Source: a virus. Taken from it: a DNA stretch of 16,665 bases. Position 1 is the first letter of the stretch. Each line of letters begins with the position of its first letter. Location of the stretch: UHGV virus genome UHGV-0187499, one strand, 5' to 3'. The notes under the pieces were generated by a model that saw only the letters and a program-made list of their open reading frames with translations, had not been told where the DNA came from and searched no databases. The translations under genes and the position numbers were made by a program. This document shows positions 1,627-16,057 of the stretch, one piece after another.

Positions 1627-1695
1627 CACTTCTCTGTTCTCACATAAATCACACTCTTTTTACACTCACAGCTTTCTCTATAGTTGGAGTGTATT

Positions 1696-3081
1696 TTGAA
1701 CAAATCAGTTACTTCTGCGCTTTCCGAGGCCGCAGATATTAACAGCGTCATTGCTCTGGTTTCTTCATTAGAGAGGAAAGAAACACGCCTGGGGCGAAGT
1801 AGCTACGTTGTCACCAGCAAAGGTGCAGAGGTAAAGACGGCTTTTAAGGTCGTTGATGCCAGCAGTCTGATCATTTCGAACAACCTTGACGGTATGATTA
1901 ACCCGGCCTTCCCGGAAGAACTCCAACCACGAGATCGTACCCGGCTATCCAGCAAACTCCAGGTTAACCGTATTGCCTCCAATTTACGCCCGGCACAATT
2001 AACGGATTCCGGTATGAGCAGCCACGGAGCGCCGATAGTTGGTCCGGACAACGTTGTTGAATCCGGCAACGGAAGGAGTATGGGTATCTGGCGTGCCTAT
2101 GAGCAAGGACAGGCGGATGAGTATCGCCAGTACCTGATCGACCATGCGAAAGAGTTTGGTCTGAATCCTGACGAAATTTCGCAAATGTCTATGCCCGTAC
2201 TAGTGCGAGAAAGACTCACAGATGTAGACCGCGCTCAATTTGCCCGCGATTCAAACATTAGCGATCTGCAAGAGATGGCAGCAAGTGAAAAAGCGTATGC
2301 GGATGCGCAATTTCTCACTGAGAGCGTCATGGCGCTATTTAATCCTTCAGATGATGGAAATCTGCTGGCGCGGTCCAATGATGCGTTTATTCGTGCGTTT
2401 TTGCGCGAAATTGGCGATACAGCGACGGCAGGCTTGCTTACTGCCGATGGGCGTCCCACGAAACAGCTTATCGATCGCATCCAGAATGCAATTTTTGCCA
2501 AAGCGTACAAGGATGAAAGGCTTGTTCGGCTAGTGTCGGAAGAGCCAGATCCGGAAATGCGTAATATCCTGACCGCATTAAATACGGCAGCCAGCGATTT
2601 TGCGCAAATGCAGTCGCTGTCTGGCGACGCTCACCATGACGCAGTAACAGGCTTAGTGGACGGTATAGAGCAGGTTAATGGCCTGGATAAACAGGCTATT
2701 GCAGCGCTACAGGAAGCAATTAACCTTGTTCGTGAAGCAAAAGATAACGGTCAGGCAGTAGAAGAGGTGATCGCACAGCGTGGATTGTTTGGAGATAGCA
2801 CTCCGGAAGCAGAAGCGCTTGCTCTGTTTATTGTTGCCAACAACCGAAGCGCTAAGCGAATGGGGGCCGCTTTCAAGAAACTGGCGCAAAAAATTAACGA
2901 TGAACTTATTCACCAACAACAAGCGTTAGGCGATATGTTCGGCGGCGGAGATGTCGATCTGCGTAGCATTTTATCTGCCGTTTCTGATGAAATTGAGGGT
3001 GAATTTGGCGAAGGGAAAGGTCTGAACTTTGCTATGTTTGAAAATTCTACAGTTCTAAATAATTGCAGTATGGAAAACTAA
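1696..3081 (+). CDS. Hypothetical phage protein (about 461 aa); acidic, Gly-rich C-terminus; candidate head or internal protein
   Basis: ORF track 1684-3081. Preferred start is TTG 1696, with GGAG at 1686-1689 six nt upstream; TTG 1684 is an alternative. No Walker A, so not a terminase large subunit. Sits directly upstream of the portal-like gene. Confidence 0.55.
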   Translation: MNKSVTSALSEAADINSVIALVSSLERKETRLGRSSYVVTSKGAEVKTAFKVVDASSLIISNNLDGMINPAFPEELQPRDRTRLSSKLQVNRIASNLRPAQLTDSGMSSHGAPIVGPDNVVESGNGRSMGIWRAYEQGQADEYRQYLIDHAKEFGLNPDEISQMSMPVLVRERLTDVDRAQFARDSNISDLQEMAASEKAYADAQFLTESVMALFNPSDDGNLLARSNDAFIRAFLREIGDTATAGLLTADGRPTKQLIDRIQNAIFAKAYKDERLVRLVSEEPDPEMRNILTALNTAASDFAQMQSLSGDAHHDAVTGLVDGIEQVNGLDKQAIAALQEAINLVREAKDNGQAVEEVIAQRGLFGDSTPEAEALALFIVANNRSAKRMGAAFKKLAQKINDELIHQQQALGDMFGGGDVDLRSILSAVSDEIEGEFGEGKGLNFAMFENSTVLNNCSMEN

Positions 3082-6040: not shown

Positions 6041-7003
6041 GTGAATATTTTAAATTCAATTTCAGTAACTTTCAACACTTCTGAGTATAAAAACAACACT
6101 GAATACCACAAAAAAATCAAAGGTCATCAGTTGAGTTTTTTTGCTCGTCATAGCGGTTTTCTTTCCCCTTCACATAGCGCCATTATTGCCGAGTTCGCCA
6201 ACCTGGCAGGAGCTACCGATGAATACATGATCCGTCGCTCATATGCTGATATGTCCGAGATTACAGGACGCAGTATTTCTACTGTGCGCCGGGCATTTGC
6301 TGAAGCGACGAAGTGCGGAATGCTTGTTAAGCAACATCAGGTAGCGAATAACAATGCTCAGGTGTGTAACGTATACCGGTTTACAACACAATTTCTCCAC
6401 TTCATTCATGTAGCAATGGAGATAGGGGGTAAGCAGGGCATCAAATTTGCGAACGCCACAAAACTGGTTAAGCAGTTGATTTCAAAGGTTCGGTATTTTT
6501 TTGAAACTGGGAACCCCCTGTTCAAATTGAACAAGTCCCCCCATGTTCAAAATGAACAGCCAATAGAAAATAAGAGTCACTCTATAGCCAAAAGAAGAGA
6601 AAGATCATGCGCGGTTCAGCCAAAGGCTTCACCAGCGGATAGTTCTCAAGCGGATAATGGGATGCTGGATAAAAAACCAGTAATCAGGGAAGAACATACC
6701 AACCACTGCCTGGCGGCGGCAAAAGCGAGAGCTGCAAAGCGTCGTTCAGACGAGGGGCACGCAAAACGGCAGGCTCTGTATCGTACCGCTGAAAAGCTGG
6801 CAAAAAAATTTGCATGGATACGTAGTGCCGCTACCGCAGTGAATAAGCCTAAACAATCCAGTGCCCTGGATTTCTCAATGGATTATTCTGGCTCCCAGGG
6901 GTGTGCAACCATTGGTGAAGCCTTTGACCTGATGAAACAGCGTGGCTATCGGTCTGAATTTGACCGGGAGGATTGGTCAATCCCTGCGGGATTTAGGGGA
7001 TGA
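6041..7003 (+). CDS. HTH DNA-binding protein; candidate replication initiator or regulator; start codon uncertain
   Basis: HTH-like segment MSEITGRSISTVRRAFAEATKCGMLVKQ and a basic C-terminal region (KRRERS..., KARAAKRRSDEGHAKRQ). The first 80 nt of the maximal ORF are AT-rich and may be leader. Alternative in-frame starts are TTG 6131 (AAAGG seven nt upstream) and ATG 6227, which is preceded by an AGGAG-driven 3-codon mini-ORF whose TGA overlaps it. Stop is TGA 7001-7003. Confidence 0.5.
   Translation: MNILNSISVTFNTSEYKNNTEYHKKIKGHQLSFFARHSGFLSPSHSAIIAEFANLAGATDEYMIRRSYADMSEITGRSISTVRRAFAEATKCGMLVKQHQVANNNAQVCNVYRFTTQFLHFIHVAMEIGGKQGIKFANATKLVKQLISKVRYFFETGNPLFKLNKSPHVQNEQPIENKSHSIAKRRERSCAVQPKASPADSSQADNGMLDKKPVIREEHTNHCLAAAKARAAKRRSDEGHAKRQALYRTAEKLAKKFAWIRSAATAVNKPKQSSALDFSMDYSGSQGCATIGEAFDLMKQRGYRSEFDREDWSIPAGFRG
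6514..6559. repeat. Two tandem palindromic iteron-like repeats embedded in the HTH protein coding sequence; origin- or operator-like
   Basis: CCCCC-TGTTCA-AAT-TGAACA (6514-6533) and CCCCCCA-TGTTCA-AAA-TGAACA (6536-6558), period about 25 bp, followed by a purine-rich A-tract region (6562-6606). Confidence 0.6.
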
Positions 7004-7046
7004 CCTGTGTGTCTACAAAACATCCCAATGATCGGAAAATGCTCGC

Positions 7047-7112
7047 TCGATGATTTGTATTAGAAAATTAATTTGCTGTTTCTAAATCGGAATGTATGAT
7101 CTGCATCATCGA
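7047..7112 (+). promoter_or_regulatory. Candidate sigma70 promoter bracketed by an 8-bp inverted repeat
   Basis: TTGCTG (7073-7078), 16-nt spacer, TATGAT (7095-7100). Flanked by TCGATGAT (7047-7054) and ATCATCGA (7105-7112). Inner dyad TTAGAAA (7060-7066) / TTTCTAA (7079-7085) overlaps the -35. Confidence 0.3.
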
Positions 7113-7141
7113 CTGAAGTCATCCATTGCTGAAATTTTTAG

Positions 7142-7170
7142 TTGATCTTCCATGTTTTCAGGCTTATATT
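7142..7170 (+). promoter_or_regulatory. Candidate sigma70 promoter for the antisense-RNA / antirepressor operon
   Basis: TTGATC (7142-7147), 17-nt spacer, TATATT (7165-7170); the predicted start site would lie about 25 nt upstream of target copy 1. Confidence 0.3.
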
Positions 7171-7200
7171 CATGCCGTCGTAGCAAATTCTGCGACCAGG

Positions 7201-7222
7201 TTTGACAGCCTGAATGATTGTG
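7201..7222 (+). promoter_or_regulatory. Upstream copy of the antisense target pair (a1/b1-like): TTTGACAGC ... TGATTGTG
   Basis: TTTGACAGC at 7201-7209 and TGATTGTG at 7215-7222. This is a direct repeat of the pair at 7370-7406 and is complementary to CTGTCAA and CACAATC in the candidate RNA. Confidence 0.4.
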
Positions 7223-7290
7223 CGGACAACCGCAGATTTCCGATATTGCGGTATTTTTGTGTCCGTTAAACCGCGTTACGCCCAAATTAT

Positions 7291-7364
7291 GGTGGGGCGT
7301 GATGGGGAGGCTTCGGCCTGCTGGTTTCACAATCGCCAGTCTGTCAACCCTGTCACGTCCTGCC
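7291..7364 (+). ncRNA. Candidate c4-like antisense regulatory RNA, about 74 nt, structured
   Basis: Hand fold: a 12-bp closing stem (7291-7302 with 7353-7364, including three G-U pairs); a C(UUCG)G tetraloop hairpin at 7308-7319; a second hairpin (stem 7320-7324 / 7336-7340) presenting CACAATC (7328-7334) in its loop; and single-stranded CTGTCAA (7341-7347). Both boxes are complementary to both target copies. Confidence 0.4.
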
Positions 7365-7369
7365 ACCTG

Positions 7370-7409
7370 TTTGACAGCGGGTAGCAGGTTGTTAAACCTG
7401 ATTGTGAGG
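7370..7409 (+). promoter_or_regulatory. Downstream copy of the antisense target pair (a2/b2-like), overlapping the RBS of the 74-codon ORF
   Basis: TTTGACAGC at 7370-7378. TGATTGTG at 7399-7406 overlaps the Shine-Dalgarno GTGAGG (7404-7409), eight nt before ATG 7418. Confidence 0.4.
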
Positions 7410-7417
7410 CCGTAACT

Positions 7418-7642
7418 ATGGTTAACGCCAATCCTTGCTCACGTCCAGAATTCATCTGGCGTTTCCACTCCCTGCAAAAACACTGCGATCACTTCGCAAT
7501 TGCCGCAACCGAAAAAGAAGCCCGTTCTCTGATCCCTGATCAGTATGGTGTTCTTACTGGTCGTTTCTCTACTTCCCCACAACCAAACACTAATCCTTGG
7601 TATCGCAATATTACCAATCCCGGCATTGCGGAGGCACATTGA
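7418..7642 (+). CDS. Small leader ORF (74 aa), translationally coupled to the downstream antirepressor-like gene; icd-like by position
   Basis: GAGG eight nt upstream of ATG 7418. Stop TGA 7640-7642 overlaps ATG 7642 of the next gene. Its RBS is covered by the b2-like box. Confidence 0.5.
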   Translation: MVNANPCSRPEFIWRFHSLQKHCDHFAIAATEKEARSLIPDQYGVLTGRFSTSPQPNTNPWYRNITNPGIAEAH

Positions 7643-8349
7643 TGGATATCTGCATTCTTGAAAAGCCATCAATGACCAGCATTGAGATCGCGGAACTGGT
7701 GGGAAAACGTCATGACAATGTGAAGCGTACCATTGAAACATTAGCCGAATCCGGCGTTATTGTTCGTCCTCAAATTGAGGATGAACCAAAAATAGATGTA
7801 ATGGGGCGTTCTCGATTAATTCAGGTGTTTCGATTTAGCGACGAGCAAGGCAAACGAGACAGTATCATTGTAGTCGCACAGCTTTGTCCTGAGTTTACTG
7901 CCCGGCTTGTGGACCGCTGGCGCGAACTGGAAGAACAAGTACGCCAGCCGTTGACCGAAATAGAGATGATCGCCGCAATGGCTGCAAATGCAGTTCAGCA
8001 GCAAAAGCGGCTTCATGTTGTTGAGTCAAAGGTTAGCCAGGTGGTAGAAACCGTCGAGCAAATCAAGAAAGGCAATATTCCGGAAGGCTACATTGGCTAC
8101 CGCCAGCTGGCGGCAAAATGCGGCCTGACCGAAGCCAAATGTCGCAACCTGGTTAACGCTTTCCGGATTCCCACCGATACACATGAGTTTTTAACTCCAG
8201 AGGGGGTATTGTCGCGTCGTTCCATCGTAGCCTTATCTCCCTTCATGAATGCTTTTAACCGGATGATGTCGGAGGCTGAACACCGAGGAAAACGCTGGTA
8301 TCACCCCAAAATGGGGCAATTCCAGGTGATCGGTTGGGGAGGTGAATGA
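7642..8349 (+). CDS. Rha-family phage regulatory / antirepressor-like protein (235 aa)
   Basis: N-terminal motif MTSIEIAELVGKRHDNVKRTIETL matches the Rha-family signature. GGAGG at 7629-7633, eight nt before ATG 7642. The ORF-track start at 7597 is an upstream in-frame extension that overlaps the leader ORF. Confidence 0.75.
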   Translation: MDICILEKPSMTSIEIAELVGKRHDNVKRTIETLAESGVIVRPQIEDEPKIDVMGRSRLIQVFRFSDEQGKRDSIIVVAQLCPEFTARLVDRWRELEEQVRQPLTEIEMIAAMAANAVQQQKRLHVVESKVSQVVETVEQIKKGNIPEGYIGYRQLAAKCGLTEAKCRNLVNAFRIPTDTHEFLTPEGVLSRRSIVALSPFMNAFNRMMSEAEHRGKRWYHPKMGQFQVIGWGGE

Positions 8350-9119: not shown

Positions 9120-9147
9120 TTGACGGTAGTATCTTCCCCGTGAAAAT
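9120..9147 (+). promoter_or_regulatory. Candidate promoter for the giant methyltransferase-helicase gene
   Basis: TTGACG (9120-9125), 16-nt spacer, GAAAAT (9142-9147). If this -10 is real, GTG 9140 cannot be the start codon, which supports TTG 9215. Confidence 0.3.
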
Positions 9148-9214
9148 AACATTCTCCATACCCTCTCAACCGTACCGCATAGCGGATTTTTTACGGTTTA
9201 GAGGGGGTAATCCT

Positions 9215-12200
9215 TTGGATAAACTACTTCATTCAATCAGTGAAGCCTCCAGCTTAGGCGAACTGATTGAGATTGTTAGTCGGTTGCATAAATTACGTGC
9301 TGTTGCGACCTTTGGCGTTAAGAAAGTCGATGGTGTCAGCATTCAAAAAACACGGCGGGCAGCAAACAACGCCGCAGTAGAGCTTCTTAATTCCCTTCCG
9401 CCCGGCTTCGATGGGGCGAAATTAACTGACGAACAGCGTCAGATTCTTGCCGGGTATACCGGTGAAGGCGGCCTGACAGATGGTGAGGGCAGCCAATACG
9501 AATACTACACGCCACAGTTTATGGCTGAAGGTATATGGGATCTGTTTGCTGACTACGGTATTGATGGCGGGCACGTACTGGAACCATCAGCGGGCACAGG
9601 TATTTTCCAGGAGACAAAACGACAGGGCATGATAATGACCAGCGCCGAACTGTCTCCGATTTCCGGTCGAATAAACCAGCTTTTGCACCCGGAAGACGAT
9701 GTGAATATCGGGGCGTTTGAGGCGCTGGCGGCGAAAGACGCAACGTATGATCACGCTGTTGGTAACGTACCGTTTGGTGAAGGGCGTTCCGGTGTCGCCG
9801 GGCTTGATCCGGCATATGCAAACGAGAAGAACGTTGGCAATTACTTTGTGCTGCGCACTATCGACAAGGTTAAGCCAGGTGGGCTTATCGTATTGGTGGT
9901 GCCGAATGGCATGACCGATGGTACGAAATATAAAAAATTGCGCGATAAAGTCAGCCGTAAAGCGGAATTTTTGGGCGCACATCGTATGCCTTCCGGTACG
10001 TTCAGCGAATCCGGTACAGATACCGTGGTGGACGTATGGGTATTGCGTAAACACCCGGAAACCTTCCTGGAGATGATCCCCGACACGGATGATTCAACAC
10101 TCAAATCGGCAAACGTCCTTTGGGATGCCTTCCTCAAAGGAAAATGGTTTACAACCGAAGGGAAGCGATTTGTTTACGGCGACATGGAACGTACCAGCTT
10201 CCGCAATACCCTGGTGGTGAAAAAGGACGGTCGTGTATCCAATGAGTCGATGAAAACCGCGCTATCTCGTCGCTTTGATAGTCGCATTAATTGGGATTTG
10301 CTCGGCGTAACTACTCAGGCATGGCAGGGCGCGAAAGTGGGCGATAAACGCCTAGTAGGCGGCATCTGGCATGAGTTTGATGGCCTGAAATGGGTCAAGG
10401 ACACGACAACCAAATCCTCCGCGCTTGATGTAAGTCGATATGGTGTTTCGACATTCGGTGATCTGCAAACAACGTTCCAATCAACAAACGGCATTCTGGC
10501 TCTGTCATGGGGGCAGATATCCGCGATCGCTTCCGACTATCCATCGGTTATCAGTGATGAAGTAGCGGCAATGATTCGCTTTGCTGGGAAACAACGCGAA
10601 AAAGACCGTGAGCGCATTATGCGCGGTGCGCTGATCGGGCAACTTATCAATAAAGCGCTGGATAAGCGTAACCTTGGTGAAAACGTCGATGATGAACTGG
10701 CTGATGCCGCACGTCTGACGGCTGCCGAAGTTGCTAAATATGGCCCACCACACGCCATTAAGCTAAACGACATTACCGAAGCGGGCGCGAAGAACTGGCT
10801 GACATTCACCGGGAACGTCAATCAGGACGGTGAAGCATCCGATCTGCTGTCCGGACGGCTTGATGTTAGCAAAGGGGCTGCTGGTATTGATTTCACTCGT
10901 CCGGAACAGGTTGTGACACACCTTTTCAGCGATGTTGCCCTTAATCCTATCAATCTTGATGACTTCCGCGAGGCGTTTAAAGGCGAACTGCCAGAAGACG
11001 ACGATCAAGCACTGGAATACCTGGCGAAATTCGACGATATCGCTATTGATGGATATGGTTGCCTGCTACCGATGGGCCGTGCCACTAGCGGTGATATTAA
11101 ATCAAAAGTGGCACTGCTGGTGGGCTGGCGAGACGCGTCCACAGGAGAGCGGAAGGCCAACTTTGAGCGCCAGCTTTCAAAAATCGAAGAGAAACGCACG
11201 TTTACACCGCTGAACAAAGTCACGGTAAACCTTAACGCACGGTGGTTGGATCGCCGCCTGATAAAAGAGTTCCTGGCAGAGCAGGGCTATGACGAGTTTA
11301 AGTATACAGAACCCGACCTTAAGGTTGAGAACGGCATTCTGGTATCCCCGGACGATTACGAAGGTAAGGACGGGGTATTTACTGGCTACCAGCTACGAAC
11401 CGTAAACGGCAAAAACGGGAACGAGTTCAAGAAAGCGAATAACAAAGATGGCTTCCTGAATCAGCTTGAGAACTACCTGAACGGTGTTAAACCGCGCGGA
11501 CAGAACGCTAACGAGTACCTGGACAAAATCGCCCAGCTTGAGACGAGTTTTAACGACTGGTTAAGAACTCACCCGCAGGCAGACCAGATCGCCCGCGATT
11601 ATAACGACGCCTTTAACGGTTATATTCCATTTACCCATTCAGACGCACCCCTGGGGCTTGAAGGCATCAGCGGGAAACGTATACCGCTTTCTTACCAGAA
11701 CGAAGAAGTTCGTCGTCTGTCGGAAGATGGGCGCGGTATTATGGGATTCGGAACTGGTTTGGGTAAAACGACGACCGCGCTGGCACTGGAAGCCTATAAC
11801 TTTGAAACCGGGCGAACCAAACGTACCTGTATCGTTGTTCCAAAGGCCGTATACCAGAACTGGTATCACGAGGCACAGAGCTTCTACAGTGCAGATGCCT
11901 TCGCCAATATGATGTTTATCGGTCTGGACGAAGTGCGCGATGGTGACGGAAATATTCAGACTGCCCCAGTGCTCGACCAGGACGGCACCCCGCGACTTGA
12001 TAACGACGGCAATCCGATCACCCGTAATGTTGTTAAAGAATCCGCCAGTGCCGTTATCGCTCAACGCATGAACATGATCCCATCGTCGAACTGGCGAACG
12101 GTCATCATGACAAAAGAGCAGTTCGCATCTATCCCGTTGCGCGATGAAACCATCGGAGAAAACTCACAGCAGGCTGTCTTTAATGCCGCCGAAATGGGGC

Positions 12201-15200
12201 GTCTTGACCTGGCGTCAGGCAAGCACCGTGATGCGCAGAAGAAGAACAAGATTAAGGACCAGGCCGCGAATACCGGTACAGCGAAGAAGCAGAATATCCC
12301 GTACTTTGAGGATATGAACTTCGATAGCGTAATTGCCGACGAAGGGCACAACTACCGCAACTCCTTTGGTGCCGGGCGTGAAGCGGGGCAACTGGCATAT
12401 TTACCTAATCCGGCGGTATCCAAAATGGCCCGTGACATGGCTGTAAAAGCTGCGTACATGATGAAACGTCACAATGGGCGCGGCGTCGTAATGCTGACAG
12501 CAACTCCGCTGGTTAATAGCCCTATTGACGCCTTCAACATGCTGTCAACGGTGATCCCTCAGCACGAGTGGATGCACATGGGAATTATTACCCCTGACGA
12601 CTTTGTGCGAGTGTTCGGTAAAACAGCCACTGTTCAGGTCCAGAAAATTTCTGGCGAAGTGGAAGAGAAACAGGGGCTGGTGGGCTTCCAGAACCTTGAT
12701 GGTCTGCGTGGCATTTTCCACCGCTGGACAACGCTTAAAACGGCTTCCGATGTTGGTGCAACGGTAAAAATCCCGGATATCGTCGAAAACACCTTGCAGA
12801 TCCCAATGACTCCAGAGCAGCAAGCAGCTTATGAAGAGCTTCGTAAACGCGCGCAGGAGTTAAGTAGTAAAGATGCGCTGACGGTCGATGAAAACGGGCA
12901 TATCACAAACGAAAAACCGGATGATTTCATCTTCTCCATCATCCGCGACATGGATAAGGTTGCTATAGATCCTGATCTGTATGCCAGTGCGATTACATTC
13001 CAGTTCCCCGTTGAGCTTGCAGACAAGGTAAAAGCTATTGCTGATGCCCTGCCAAAAGTAGCTGGCGGTAAAGTGGCAGATGATGCAGACGAGGCCGAAG
13101 AAGATGGCGCTGGTGGGCTGGTCAGTACGCGTACCAGCAAGGTAGTGAAGACCACCTTTAGCGAACATCCGTCGCATGTTGAAATACGTGCTGGCATTGA
13201 ACTGGAAGCTGAAATACTGAAGGCCATTGCGGCTGCCGGTATTGATATGCAGCAGGTATCACACCCCATCCCGCCGAAGTATGCCGCGCTGATCGAAAAC
13301 CTTCGTGAAGGTCTGAAGAACGGTAAACAAATCGTCTTCATTGATGAAAAAGCCCAGCACCAGAAGCTGCGCCGTATTATTGCCAGTGCACTGCAAATGC
13401 CGGAGCAGGAGATAGGCATTATCAATGCGACGACAGTTAGCCAGGCTGGCGGCGTCAAGCTGAAGAAGGTGAATAAGCCGACTGAACCTACGCCAAACAA
13501 AGACGGTGAATACAAAGAAGGCGCATGGGAAACCTACTACAGTAAACTGGCCCAATATGAGGATTATCTCTCTGCTAAAAATGATGCTGGCCTTGAGGGG
13601 ATGGAAGGTATTGCTGCCGACTATAACGAAGGGCGCACGCGAATCATTATCTGTAACAAGAAAGCCGAAGTAGGTATCAACCTGCATATTGGAACGACCG
13701 ATATTCACCACCTGACACTACCCTGGACTCCTGCCAGTATCGACCAACGAAATGGGCGAGGTGCGCGCGTAGGTTCTCCGCAAGAGAAGGTTAATGTTCA
13801 CTATTATTGTGGCAAAGGCACATTCGATGACTTCCGTCTGGATACGCTTAAACGTAAGAAAGACTGGATCAAGATGGTGATGACCTCCGATATGTCAGAG
13901 ATCGCCAATGGTGATGCGGATGACGCTGATGAACGCGCCATTATGCTGGCGGCAAATCCGGAAGAACGACGCGCAATTATGGCTCGTCAGTCGAAAGAAC
14001 GTGAGGAACGCCTGCGACTTAAAGCGCAACGCGAAGCCAATAATGCTCTCGATAACTACCTGAAAGCGGCGAATGCTGCCGGGAAGGATATCGGCATGAT
14101 GGAGGCAGAACTGAAAAGCGCGATGGAGCAGGTGCAACGATACCAGAGTGATCTGGATGGACTGATTAAGAGCGGCATCAACAAAAACGGACAGAAATAT
14201 ACGCTTTCAGCACTAAGCAAAGCTAAAAAAAGTGTGCGTGAATTGCGATTTGCAATCACCAGGGCGAAGGACGCGGATACTGTTATGAAACGCTCTCGTG
14301 GTGATGTGGAGCGTGCTATTAAGTCTGGTGTGCTGGATATCAGTATCGATGTTATTCAGAACCCGCAGGAGTATATTCGCACTGGCAAGAACATCCTGTT
14401 GCATAAAGGTAGTTACTACCGTGCAGTCATTAATGCTGAATACGAGACAACGGCGATTGTACGCGTGACACAAATTGAGAGCGAAAAAGCGCAATTCACC
14501 TGCCGCGTCGCCTGGCTGGATAGAGCAAGTCGCCACTCTCGTTCTCCTGGCTCAACCATGACATTACCGTTTGACTCAGTGGTTGAAGCGGTAACATTTG
14601 AAGAGGGGGTGGCTGAATCACGAGAAATAGCGGCACGTGGTGTTCAAAGCCACCAGCTTTCAACCTCTCTTTCTCGCGATCAATTCTATGACGCTATTCG
14701 TAGCGGTGTTATGCGGGTAACTGGGAAAGATCGTGGCGGTTGGCAAGGAGCACCGGATGTAAACTATTGGGCTTATCGTAACGCCAATGGTCAGATTCAA
14801 ATGGCCTTTACCTATGGCGGGATGATTGGTAAAAAAATTAGCGCATCTGGAAGTGACGAGATAGCACCTGAACAATGGATTTATCCTGATGTAAACGACG
14901 AAGCATTAAAACGCGAAGTCGCGAAAATCCAGACAGGTGATAACCCACTTCGTATTTCAGAGGCAGAAGGTTTTCTCCGTGCATTGTTTGGCTTCGATTA
15001 TGAGCAAGGTATGGAGGCATGGGGCGCTCAGGCCACTATGGATGATGTGGTCAGGGCGTTCGATGGCTGGATGGCAGGGCGCGATCTCTCCGGGCGTTCA
15101 CTTGAAAAAGTGACTCAGGAAGATGTCCGCAGCTTGTTCCGCAAGCCAAATGGAGAAGGCCTGGAAACGTACTGGCGAGGCGTGCTTTCTTTCCGCGATT

Positions 15201-16057
15201 TCCAGGGGCGCATGAAAGCCTTCACCAATGGTTCGGAGATTTCGCAGATGTTCGAACAACTGCGAACGTCCAAAATCACAACCAAAATTGAGAAAACACG
15301 CATGGCGCTAAATGCATGGCGTGATGCGCTGTTTGATCAGTACAAAATGCAAAGTGATGCAGATGGTTGGGCGTCACTTGCCTCGTTGGCAGATCAGTCA
15401 GTTTACAGTGCGCAACTAAGCATTTCTAATGCCGATAATCCGCTTGAAACATCTGCAACAGTCTGGATTAAAGCGGGGGCGTTAATTCATGCATTTGAGG
15501 ATAAAAGCATTACCCGTGATGATTTCGCAGATGCAGATAGCTTGAATCGTCTTGTCGGGATGGCTATACGCCATGCTAACGCCTTAAAAGCGGGCAGGTA
15601 TGTGGAAGAGTTGCCTGATGCTCTGAAATCTGCAACGTGGGATGACTTTGTGTCGCTTAAAAATGGTGGCGCTACGGAGTCAGAGATTGCTGAACGTCTT
15701 GCGGCGGCTAAGACTGAACGGGAAGAACAGGCTGATGCAGCAGAGATCAAGGCTGACGAGGCAGCAAATGATGATTACATTATCGTGGTAAACGATAAGC
15801 CTATTCGCGCCAAAGCACGTGTACGCGGGCGCTGGTGGAGCGTAAGTGAAGACGCTGGTGCTGTTTATCTCATTGCCGATCAGCCCGGTTCCTCGACAAT
15901 ACGGAACGCCAAGGACGCGATTAAGAAGATTGGCGGGCGTTTCTGGAATTTTGAAGCAAACCCGGTTGCTGATGTGAACTTTGACCGTCCGGCATGGATG
16001 GTATCTACTCGTTACTCGGTAGATGAACTACGTAAAATAATCGCCGATGCGGCTTAA
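9215..16057 (+). CDS. darB: DarB-like giant anti-restriction protein: N6-adenine methyltransferase fused to an SF2 helicase with a long C-terminal extension (about 2280 aa)
   Basis: Methyltransferase motifs: YYTP (9503-9514), EPSAGTG (9581-9601), GNVPFG (9761-9778). Helicase motifs: GFGTGLGKTTTA (11744-11779), DEGH (12338-12349), TATP (12497-12508), QRNGRGARVG (13745-13774). Preferred start is TTG 9215 with GAGGGGG seven nt upstream; the ORF-track start GTG 9140 has no RBS and rare codons (ATA three times, AGA, CGG, GGG). Stop is TAA 16055-16057. Confidence 0.85.
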   Translation: MDKLLHSISEASSLGELIEIVSRLHKLRAVATFGVKKVDGVSIQKTRRAANNAAVELLNSLPPGFDGAKLTDEQRQILAGYTGEGGLTDGEGSQYEYYTPQFMAEGIWDLFADYGIDGGHVLEPSAGTGIFQETKRQGMIMTSAELSPISGRINQLLHPEDDVNIGAFEALAAKDATYDHAVGNVPFGEGRSGVAGLDPAYANEKNVGNYFVLRTIDKVKPGGLIVLVVPNGMTDGTKYKKLRDKVSRKAEFLGAHRMPSGTFSESGTDTVVDVWVLRKHPETFLEMIPDTDDSTLKSANVLWDAFLKGKWFTTEGKRFVYGDMERTSFRNTLVVKKDGRVSNESMKTALSRRFDSRINWDLLGVTTQAWQGAKVGDKRLVGGIWHEFDGLKWVKDTTTKSSALDVSRYGVSTFGDLQTTFQSTNGILALSWGQISAIASDYPSVISDEVAAMIRFAGKQREKDRERIMRGALIGQLINKALDKRNLGENVDDELADAARLTAAEVAKYGPPHAIKLNDITEAGAKNWLTFTGNVNQDGEASDLLSGRLDVSKGAAGIDFTRPEQVVTHLFSDVALNPINLDDFREAFKGELPEDDDQALEYLAKFDDIAIDGYGCLLPMGRATSGDIKSKVALLVGWRDASTGERKANFERQLSKIEEKRTFTPLNKVTVNLNARWLDRRLIKEFLAEQGYDEFKYTEPDLKVENGILVSPDDYEGKDGVFTGYQLRTVNGKNGNEFKKANNKDGFLNQLENYLNGVKPRGQNANEYLDKIAQLETSFNDWLRTHPQADQIARDYNDAFNGYIPFTHSDAPLGLEGISGKRIPLSYQNEEVRRLSEDGRGIMGFGTGLGKTTTALALEAYNFETGRTKRTCIVVPKAVYQNWYHEAQSFYSADAFANMMFIGLDEVRDGDGNIQTAPVLDQDGTPRLDNDGNPITRNVVKESASAVIAQRMNMIPSSNWRTVIMTKEQFASIPLRDETIGENSQQAVFNAAEMGRLDLASGKHRDAQKKNKIKDQAANTGTAKKQNIPYFEDMNFDSVIADEGHNYRNSFGAGREAGQLAYLPNPAVSKMARDMAVKAAYMMKRHNGRGVVMLTATPLVNSPIDAFNMLSTVIPQHEWMHMGIITPDDFVRVFGKTATVQVQKISGEVEEKQGLVGFQNLDGLRGIFHRWTTLKTASDVGATVKIPDIVENTLQIPMTPEQQAAYEELRKRAQELSSKDALTVDENGHITNEKPDDFIFSIIRDMDKVAIDPDLYASAITFQFPVELADKVKAIADALPKVAGGKVADDADEAEEDGAGGLVSTRTSKVVKTTFSEHPSHVEIRAGIELEAEILKAIAAAGIDMQQVSHPIPPKYAALIENLREGLKNGKQIVFIDEKAQHQKLRRIIASALQMPEQEIGIINATTVSQAGGVKLKKVNKPTEPTPNKDGEYKEGAWETYYSKLAQYEDYLSAKNDAGLEGMEGIAADYNEGRTRIIICNKKAEVGINLHIGTTDIHHLTLPWTPASIDQRNGRGARVGSPQEKVNVHYYCGKGTFDDFRLDTLKRKKDWIKMVMTSDMSEIANGDADDADERAIMLAANPEERRAIMARQSKEREERLRLKAQREANNALDNYLKAANAAGKDIGMMEAELKSAMEQVQRYQSDLDGLIKSGINKNGQKYTLSALSKAKKSVRELRFAITRAKDADTVMKRSRGDVERAIKSGVLDISIDVIQNPQEYIRTGKNILLHKGSYYRAVINAEYETTAIVRVTQIESEKAQFTCRVAWLDRASRHSRSPGSTMTLPFDSVVEAVTFEEGVAESREIAARGVQSHQLSTSLSRDQFYDAIRSGVMRVTGKDRGGWQGAPDVNYWAYRNANGQIQMAFTYGGMIGKKISASGSDEIAPEQWIYPDVNDEALKREVAKIQTGDNPLRISEAEGFLRALFGFDYEQGMEAWGAQATMDDVVRAFDGWMAGRDLSGRSLEKVTQEDVRSLFRKPNGEGLETYWRGVLSFRDFQGRMKAFTNGSEISQMFEQLRTSKITTKIEKTRMALNAWRDALFDQYKMQSDADGWASLASLADQSVYSAQLSISNADNPLETSATVWIKAGALIHAFEDKSITRDDFADADSLNRLVGMAIRHANALKAGRYVEELPDALKSATWDDFVSLKNGGATESEIAERLAAAKTEREEQADAAEIKADEAANDDYIIVVNDKPIRAKARVRGRWWSVSEDAGAVYLIADQPGSSTIRNAKDAIKKIGGRFWNFEANPVADVNFDRPAWMVSTRYSVDELRKIIADAA

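Follow-up and report, generated by a model that had tools for sequence, protein, structure and literature searches.

In E. coli and Salmonella, P1-family phage-plasmids are frequent carriers of resistance genes. A small RNA called C4 decides whether such a phage-plasmid remains lysogenic, and which related elements are silenced. The strict P1-type immI operon, which includes the c4 gene, has the order sim - Oc4/P51a - P51b - c4 - icd - ant1/2 - kilA - repL. C4 is a 77-nt trans-acting RNA that is responsible for the heteroimmunity of P1 and P7 (PMC12197685). Passages of the Weinberg 2010 supplement describe two boxes of this RNA, a' and b', that pair with the sites a1 and b1 and with the sites a2 and b2, one of which is located at a ribosome-binding site; a1/b1 are proposed there to be competitors of a2/b2 for C4. 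The same passages report that covariation supports the structure of the C4 family, and that UNCG is the most frequent tetraloop of its P2 hairpin. Homologues of the c4-icd-antirepressor region have been reported in D6-like plasmids (PMC6799933). Neither the RNA family nor its mechanism nor its occurrence in D6-like plasmids is new.

The sar RNA of phage P22 is a cis-encoded, fully complementary antisense transcript that functions without two-box recognition. Unlike C4, sar is not a structured RNA that has the same direction as the operon and is processed from its transcript. The likeness between the two is a functional analogy, with no family relationship: sar, in the immI region of P22, is a small RNA that blocks translation of the anti-repressor by pairing at the ant ribosome-binding region (PMC12197685).

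We analyzed a stretch of viral DNA of 16,665 nucleotides (UHGV virus genome UHGV-0187499), hereafter called the window. A first-pass annotation made from its letters had proposed that positions 7291-7364 encode a compact structured RNA that resembles c4 and displays antisense boxes for kissing-type pairing.

Identification of a C4 RNA in the window

On nucleotide identity and gene order, the window is assigned to the D6-like type of P1-family phage-plasmids. Over positions 7100-7700, nucleotide identity to phage D6 is 95.2%, and that to the E. coli plasmid CP099081 is 99.2%. Identity to P1 and P7 is approximately 91% and is limited to 7157-7529 within this interval. Genes are arranged as in D6: portal, head protease and repL-like genes are followed by c4, icd and a Rha/Roi-type anti-repressor gene, and then by a small ORF, a peptidoglycan hydrolase gene on the other strand and a darB-like gene. 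D6 and the D6-like plasmid prophages pYU39_89 and CP099081 share this genome type and the order prt, pro, repL-like, c4, icd, Rha-type ant, small ORF, hydrolase, darB.

The candidate RNA is almost certainly the C4 antisense RNA of P1-family phage-plasmids, that is, the product of c4 in the immI operon of a D6-like element, and no observation speaks against this identification. When the whole window was scanned with Rfam models, exactly two matches exceeded the gathering score, RF01695 and RF03163. The former is the C4 antisense RNA family; it matches 7285-7370 on the + strand with 68.4 bits (gathering score 45, E value 8.9e-12) and covers the full model, positions 1-87 of 87. The curated 77-nt C4 RNA of P1 maps to 7291-7367 with 75 of 77 bases identical, and both differences reside in the b' loop. 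The window, P1, P7 and D6 do not differ in the six bases 5' and the three bases 3' of C4, and the interval 7285-7370, with the 5' leader of 6 nt and the ACC tail, matches P1 except for the two loop bases.

These comparisons bear out the first-pass annotation, which had noted that its length of about 74 nt is close to the approximately 77 nt of P1 c4. By homology with P1, the mature RNA ends at 7367, three nucleotides (the ACC tail) beyond 7364, and has exactly 77 nt. The two boxes that the annotation had singled out correspond to a' and b' of the P1/P7 system, and each has two perfectly complementary targets. Thus, a reading of the raw sequence alone identified a classic regulatory RNA, and the tools agree with it to the base; standard Rfam annotation also suffices to find this C4 RNA.

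Structure and its conservation

ViennaRNA predicts for 7291-7364 (74 nt) a minimum-free-energy (MFE) structure that is identical to the centroid, has a free energy of -40.3 kcal/mol and accounts for 62% of the ensemble. The z score is -4.2, and none of 200 dinucleotide shuffles folds as well. The prediction recovers the fold that had been drawn by hand, including the C(UUCG)G tetraloop hairpin at 7308-7319 and a second hairpin whose stem (7320-7324 with 7336-7340) carries an 11-nt loop at 7325-7335. This loop displays UUUCACAAUCG, contains the b' box CACAATC (7328-7334), and is unpaired in both the MFE and the centroid structure. The a' box CUGUCAA (7341-7347), which had been described as single-stranded ahead of the closing stem, forms an unpaired junction in the folds of both the 74-nt RNA and its precursor. 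The closing stem is longer than was proposed: the 12 base pairs of the hand fold, with their three G-U pairs, are present as the outer part of a stem of 17 base pairs (7291-7307 with 7348-7364).

The fold of the C4 domain is unchanged inside a 264-nt predicted precursor (7177-7440). The RNA exhibits the three-helix architecture of C4, with a long closing stem, a tetraloop hairpin (P2), a large-loop hairpin that presents b' (P3) and an unpaired a' junction, and its UUCG loop fits the tetraloop preference described for the family.

A covariance model was built from the sequences of the window, P1, P7, D6 and the second CP099081 copy. The divergent third CP099081 copy (A2) was dropped, because its MAFFT alignment was out of register with the structure. 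The model recovered 104 copies in 100 sources, including five divergent copies at 35-59 bits. Among 19 distinct sequences, in an alignment that leans towards the structure because it was fitted to the model, 99.2% of the cells form standard pairs, and 10 of the 26 pairs are changed on both sides. Control values for such two-sided changes are 1.5 ± 1.0 for column shuffles and 0-2 when the 3' partners are slid along the alignment. The fold read from the window is thus conserved in its relatives, and the compensatory changes agree with the published covariation support for the C4 family.

Organization of the operon

In pairwise alignment, the P1 features P1c4, a1, b1, C4, a2, b2 and icd all map onto the window with their order kept. 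The order in the window is promoter, a1/b1, c4, a2/b2, icd and a Rha/Ant-type anti-repressor gene, and the latter two genes have the orientation of c4. The features are as follows.

7142 to 7170, + strand: putative sigma-70 promoter, equivalent of P1c4 (formerly P51b); found by promoter scan, aligns position for position with P1
7142 to 7147, + strand: -35 element TTGATC, 17-bp spacer to the -10 element
7165 to 7170, + strand: -10 element TATATT; promoter scan and P1 alignment
7164 to 7216, + strand: c4-a1b1 leader element; Rfam RF03163 with 54.4 bits (gathering score 46.7, E value 1.4e-11)
7202 to 7208, + strand: a1 box TTGACAG (P1-type); P1 a1 site, 7/7 complementary to 7341-7347
7216 to 7222, + strand: b1 box GATTGTG (P7-type); P1 b1 site, which maps to 7216-7223
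7291 to 7367, + strand: mature C4 RNA, 77 nt by homology; RF01695, 75/77 identity to P1, folds and compensatory changes
7325 to 7335, + strand: b' loop, 11 nt, with box CACAATC at 7328-7334 (P7-type); from the fold
7341 to 7347, + strand: a' junction CTGTCAA (P1/D6-type); from the fold, 7/7 to a1 and a2
7365 to 7367, + strand: 3' ACC tail of C4; P1 homology
7371 to 7377, + strand: a2 box TTGACAG, 4 nt past the C4 3' end; P1 a2 site, 7/7 to a'
7399 to 7409, + strand: b2 target with core GATTGTG at 7400-7406; P1 b2 site, which maps to 7400-7407
7406 to 7409, + strand: icd Shine-Dalgarno sequence GAGG, 8 nt upstream of the ATG at 7418
7418 to 7642, + strand: icd, 74 aa; NCBIfam phage_ICD_like (NF033153), 40 bits against 25
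7642 to 8349, + strand: Rha/Ant-type anti-repressor gene (Rha/Roi-type), 235 aa; Pfam Phage_pRha and phrog_63

Homology with P1 suggests that the promoter at 7142-7170 is functional. The Rfam consensus of the leader element consists of two hairpins, the second of which (7197-7212) carries a1 in its loop and is directly followed on its 3' side by b1. In the precursor fold, only the leader hairpin at 7177-7196 forms, and 7197-7212 is engaged in long-range pairing with 7385-7400. The icd product, a host cell-division inhibitor, is 61% identical to P1 Icd and matches phrog_1426 at 5.7e-39; icd is the first translated gene of the operon. The product of the next gene matches phrog_63, "anti-repressor Ant," at 1.8e-45, and its D6 homologue is annotated as a putative anti-repressor.

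The whole b' loop can pair with 7399-7409 to form 11 base pairs, including G-U, that cover the Shine-Dalgarno sequence of icd. The duplex of b' with b1 has 8 base pairs (7215-7222 with 7328-7335). This complementarity exceeds chance: on the + strand of the 16.6-kb window, GATTGTG is confined to 7216 and 7400, and its complement to 7328. Predicted energies are -11.7 kcal/mol for the cognate b'/b2 duplex and -8.4 kcal/mol for the cognate a pair. Across alleles, cognate b duplexes are predicted at about -11 to -12 kcal/mol and non-cognate ones at -1 to -7 kcal/mol.

Two segments of the transcript could form a further duplex. The a1 hairpin at 7197-7212 (CAGGUUUGACAGCCUG) and another hairpin, immediately 5' to b2 at 7385-7400 (CAGGUUGUUAAACCUG) can pair over 16 base pairs with a predicted energy of -24.6 kcal/mol. 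This duplex is present in both the MFE and the centroid structure of the precursor and would flank the C4 domain. With the P7 a allele, its energy is -23.8 kcal/mol, through G-U pairs; it is weaker in P1 (-15.7) and D6 (-13.4).

Comparison with P1, P7 and D6

The box alleles of the window and of the three reference phages are as follows.

Window: a' CUGUCAA, b' CACAAUC
P1: a' CUGUCAA, b' CACUAAC
P7: a' CUGCUAA, b' CACAAUC
D6: a' CUGUCAA, b' CGUAAGU

Thus, the window combines a P1-type a' with a P7-type b', and all four of its targets carry the matching complements. With P1 C4, the window RNA shares, in addition to 75 of 77 nucleotides, the three-helix fold, the UUCG tetraloop and a'. The surroundings also correspond, with a P51b-type promoter, an a1/b1 leader, a2/b2 with b2 at the icd ribosome-binding site, and then icd. 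However, b' differs between the two, and b1 and b2 are changed to match.

Upstream of c4, the two operons diverge. P1 similarity starts at approximately 7157, and the Oc4 operator and the P51a promoter of P1 are missing from the window. No match to the P1-type C1 operator ATTGCTCTAATAAATTT was found in the whole window with up to three mismatches. The main repressor may thus control this operon differently than it does in P1. The upstream gene is repL-like in the window, whereas it is simABC in P1. The spacer that separates the c4 promoter from the repL-like gene (7004-7156) is without P1 similarity, and only the P51b-type promoter is recognizable there; a D6-specific operator upstream of c4 is possible.

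Downstream, the gene that follows icd is of the Rha/Roi type in the window, whereas P1 has Ant1/Ant2. BLASTP detects no similarity between the window anti-repressor and P1 Ant1 (E value 0.37). The c4-icd control cassette has thus been kept, and the regulated anti-repressor exchanged. Nucleotide similarity to P1 and P7 ends near 7529, in the middle of icd, and the C-terminal part of Icd and everything downstream are of the D6 type. Position ~7529 therefore marks a mosaic junction within icd, in which 7529-7642 is D6-type.

P7 C4 shares with the window RNA its b' box, the b1/b2 targets and the scaffold. The P7 a' box differs, and it has UUAGCAG as its targets, in contrast to UUGACAG in the window; one stem base also differs, P7 having C in place of U at the equivalent of 7351. 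The duplex of the window C4 with the P7 a2 site is predicted to be weak (-3.6 kcal/mol, compared with -8.4 kcal/mol for the cognate). The window C4 thus matches the P1 targets in a only (-8.4 kcal/mol) and the P7 targets in b only (-11.7 kcal/mol), and is predicted to be half-cognate to each. D6 differs in holding a third b allele, with ACUUACG as its targets. A c4 RNA feature is absent from the D6 GenBank record and from the PLSDB gene table for CP099081.

Proposed mechanism

Our statements on mechanism draw on the curated P1/P7 GenBank annotation, the Weinberg 2010 supplement and a 2025 review. By analogy with P1, constitutive transcription from the promoter at 7142-7170 would produce one RNA that contains the a1/b1 leader, C4, a2/b2, icd and the anti-repressor gene, and the 77-nt C4 RNA (7291-7367) would be excised from this operon transcript. 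RNase P would generate the 5' end of C4, reading the long closing stem and the 3' ACC as a tRNA-like acceptor end; we infer this resemblance from the stem and tail. RNase P cleavage of the P1/P7 C4 precursor was reportedly observed by Hartmann and colleagues in 1995. Such processing is probable in the window as well, given that its sequence does not differ from P1 around the cleavage site and at the 3' end, and near-identity to P1 likewise points to repression in trans.

Free C4 would present b' in the 11-nt hairpin loop and a' in the single-stranded junction, and would pair with a2 and b2 of the operon mRNA, either on the same copy or on a different one. The b'/b2 duplex would hide the icd Shine-Dalgarno sequence and block translation of icd. 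The stop codon of icd overlaps the anti-repressor ATG (TGATG at 7640-7644), which suggests translational coupling, and the block of icd would presumably extend to the anti-repressor through these overlapping codons. With the anti-repressor blocked, we propose that the main prophage repressor would remain active and that lysogeny and superinfection immunity would be kept. The a and b boxes would determine which operons a given C4 silences. Genetic and biochemical work on P1 and P7 makes trans action, the translational block with coupling, and the immunity phenotype likely for this locus too. The repressor targeted by the product of the gene at 7642-8349 is only assumed, because this anti-repressor is without BLASTP similarity to P1 Ant1/2.

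Box alleles and pairing specificity

We scanned IMG/VR for the exact 25-nt core of C4 (7304-7328), which is invariant by construction in this survey, and obtained at least 120 contigs. The six boxes were compared in at least 123 loci (P1, P7 and D6 included), at least 119 of which are complete. The a' box has two main alleles, with at least 76 and at least 46 copies. At least six b alleles occur; b' alleles have at least 42, 25, 23, 15, 14 and 2 copies, respectively, and there are singletons in addition. Among the loci listed, each of the five common b alleles is found with each of the two main a alleles, which makes ten combinations. The combination in the window recurs in at least 11 other public contigs, and the 77-nt RNA is identical each time.

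In 117 of the 119 complete loci among the matches listed, b1 and b2 are both the reverse complement of b'. When b' was permuted among the listed loci (1000 permutations), a mean of 26.6 and a maximum of 39 loci were concordant, figures that overstate significance and independence because the loci are close, non-independent relatives. The a boxes are concordant in 118 of 119 listed loci, compared with a permuted mean of 61 and a maximum of 81, to which the same overstatement applies. Singletons aside, C4 varies among the listed loci only at 7329-7334, 7344-7345 and 7351. The most variable positions are those in b' (7329-7334), and the second site is in a' (7344-7345). Without selection for pairing, the threefold, concordant presence of each b allele would be difficult to account for.

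Some contigs carry two or three c4 genes (for example, L019/L054/L103 and L016/L079/L108). On seven such contigs among those listed, C4 copies share b' in none of 11 same-contig pairs and share a' in 6 of 11. Random pairs of listed loci share b' 21% of the time, and the probability of 0/11 by chance is about 0.07. The co-resident copies thus hint that b is the main discriminator.

We tentatively suggest, as a reading that is possible yet short of probable, that the two boxes of C4 constitute a modular, recombining specificity code, and that the window RNA is a natural recombinant with a P1-type a and a P7-type b. If this is true, the window C4 would represent an immunity type apart from P1 and P7 and half-cognate to each, a single phage-plasmid could operate with several C4 circuits that are orthogonal to one another, and new immunity types would originate from crossovers in the short stretch between the boxes. 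From the box alleles of a plasmid, its immunity and compatibility relations with P1, P7 and D6-type elements can be predicted, and the allele table, a purely computational one, could serve as a ready source of orthogonal small-RNA/target pairs on one scaffold. This mix-and-match system is the only point of the present analysis that may be new.

Among those listed, the sole in-register locus in which a target is discordant with its C4 is L045 (IMGVR_UViG_2565956613_000015). Its b' and b1 boxes are of the AUUCGU type, but its b2 box, GTTAGTG, is P1-type. A copy with the P1-type b is present on another contig of this genome (L077). Recombination between co-resident copies, or a chimeric assembly, may account for L045.

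Alternative explanations

The conserved structure could instead act exclusively in cis, as a leader or attenuator of the icd-ant mRNA in which a2/b2 of the same molecule are sequestered, such that no trans-acting RNA is released. C4 and its targets do belong to a single transcript in which no terminator separates them, the fold of the precursor predicts added long-range pairing around the C4 domain, and a passage of the Weinberg 2010 supplement notes that C4 might sometimes act in cis. However, P1 C4 is a processed 77-nt RNA that acts in trans and is responsible for immunity to a second phage (PMC12197685), and the window copy has 75 of its 77 nucleotides and identical flanks at the processing sites. 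Moreover, the finding that co-resident copies share b' in 0/11 listed pairs, a small sample, is expected only with trans action. We consider a purely cis-acting element very improbable and favor a C4 RNA that is released and acts in trans.

Still smaller is the chance that the locus functions through a small protein or is a degenerate or unrelated hairpin. Three ORFs overlap it (+7214-7384, +7218-7415 and -7106-7366), and c4 is entered as a CDS in one old GenBank record of P1 (X15639), whereas later P1 and P7 annotations give c4 as RNA. The first of these ORFs is open in 28 of 34 in-register relatives, but the second and third are interrupted in 28 of 34 and in 34 of 34 relatives, respectively. 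Variation is limited to two boxes, each matched at two distant sites, which is a signature of nucleic-acid pairing, and the helices exhibit compensatory changes. In view of the interrupted ORFs and the covariation pattern, the coding interpretation was rejected and is effectively refuted. Absence of the P1 operator and P51a region, together with replacement of the anti-repressor, could be read as a rearranged, decaying locus that retains a remnant of c4. Yet all six boxes are perfectly matched, the exact 77-nt sequence exists in at least 11 other public contigs, and the scaffold outside the boxes is almost invariant among the listed loci. The hairpins might also belong to a tRNA-like gene or to a terminator of the upstream repL-like gene. 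ARAGORN predicts 0 tRNA or tmRNA genes in the window, and Rfam gives no tRNA match there. No terminator was detected on the + strand in 6900-7700, and the C4 stem is followed by ACCUGUUUG and not by a U run. Both of these hairpin assignments were rejected on these grounds, and a remnant or other hairpin in general has a negligible probability. The preferred interpretation remains an intact C4 RNA.

Other C4 copies and neighboring genes

CP099081, the 99.2% relative of the window, contains three Rfam C4 RNAs, each of which adjoins an icd-like gene; the window contains one copy only. One of the three corresponds to the copy in the window. C4 copies of the plasmid are located at L125 1869-1954 (- strand) and L126 12640-12727 (+ strand). 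Another copy resides beside a RepB plasmid replicon and has its own a1b1 element, the b' box CAUGUAC and the same a' as the window. The third, a divergent one (76.7 bits), follows an isrK RNA (RF01394) and an ash gene.

Upstream of the portal gene of the window, a 465-aa ORF at 1684-3081 has a strong match to a ddrB-like ParB-superfamily domain (PF18763, 2e-42). At the other end, positions 9140-16057 form a single darB-like ORF of 2305 aa that combines a methyltransferase with an SNF2 helicase, and the same is seen in D6. In CP099081, the darB-like region is annotated as two CDS, 27665-29467 and 29522-34504.
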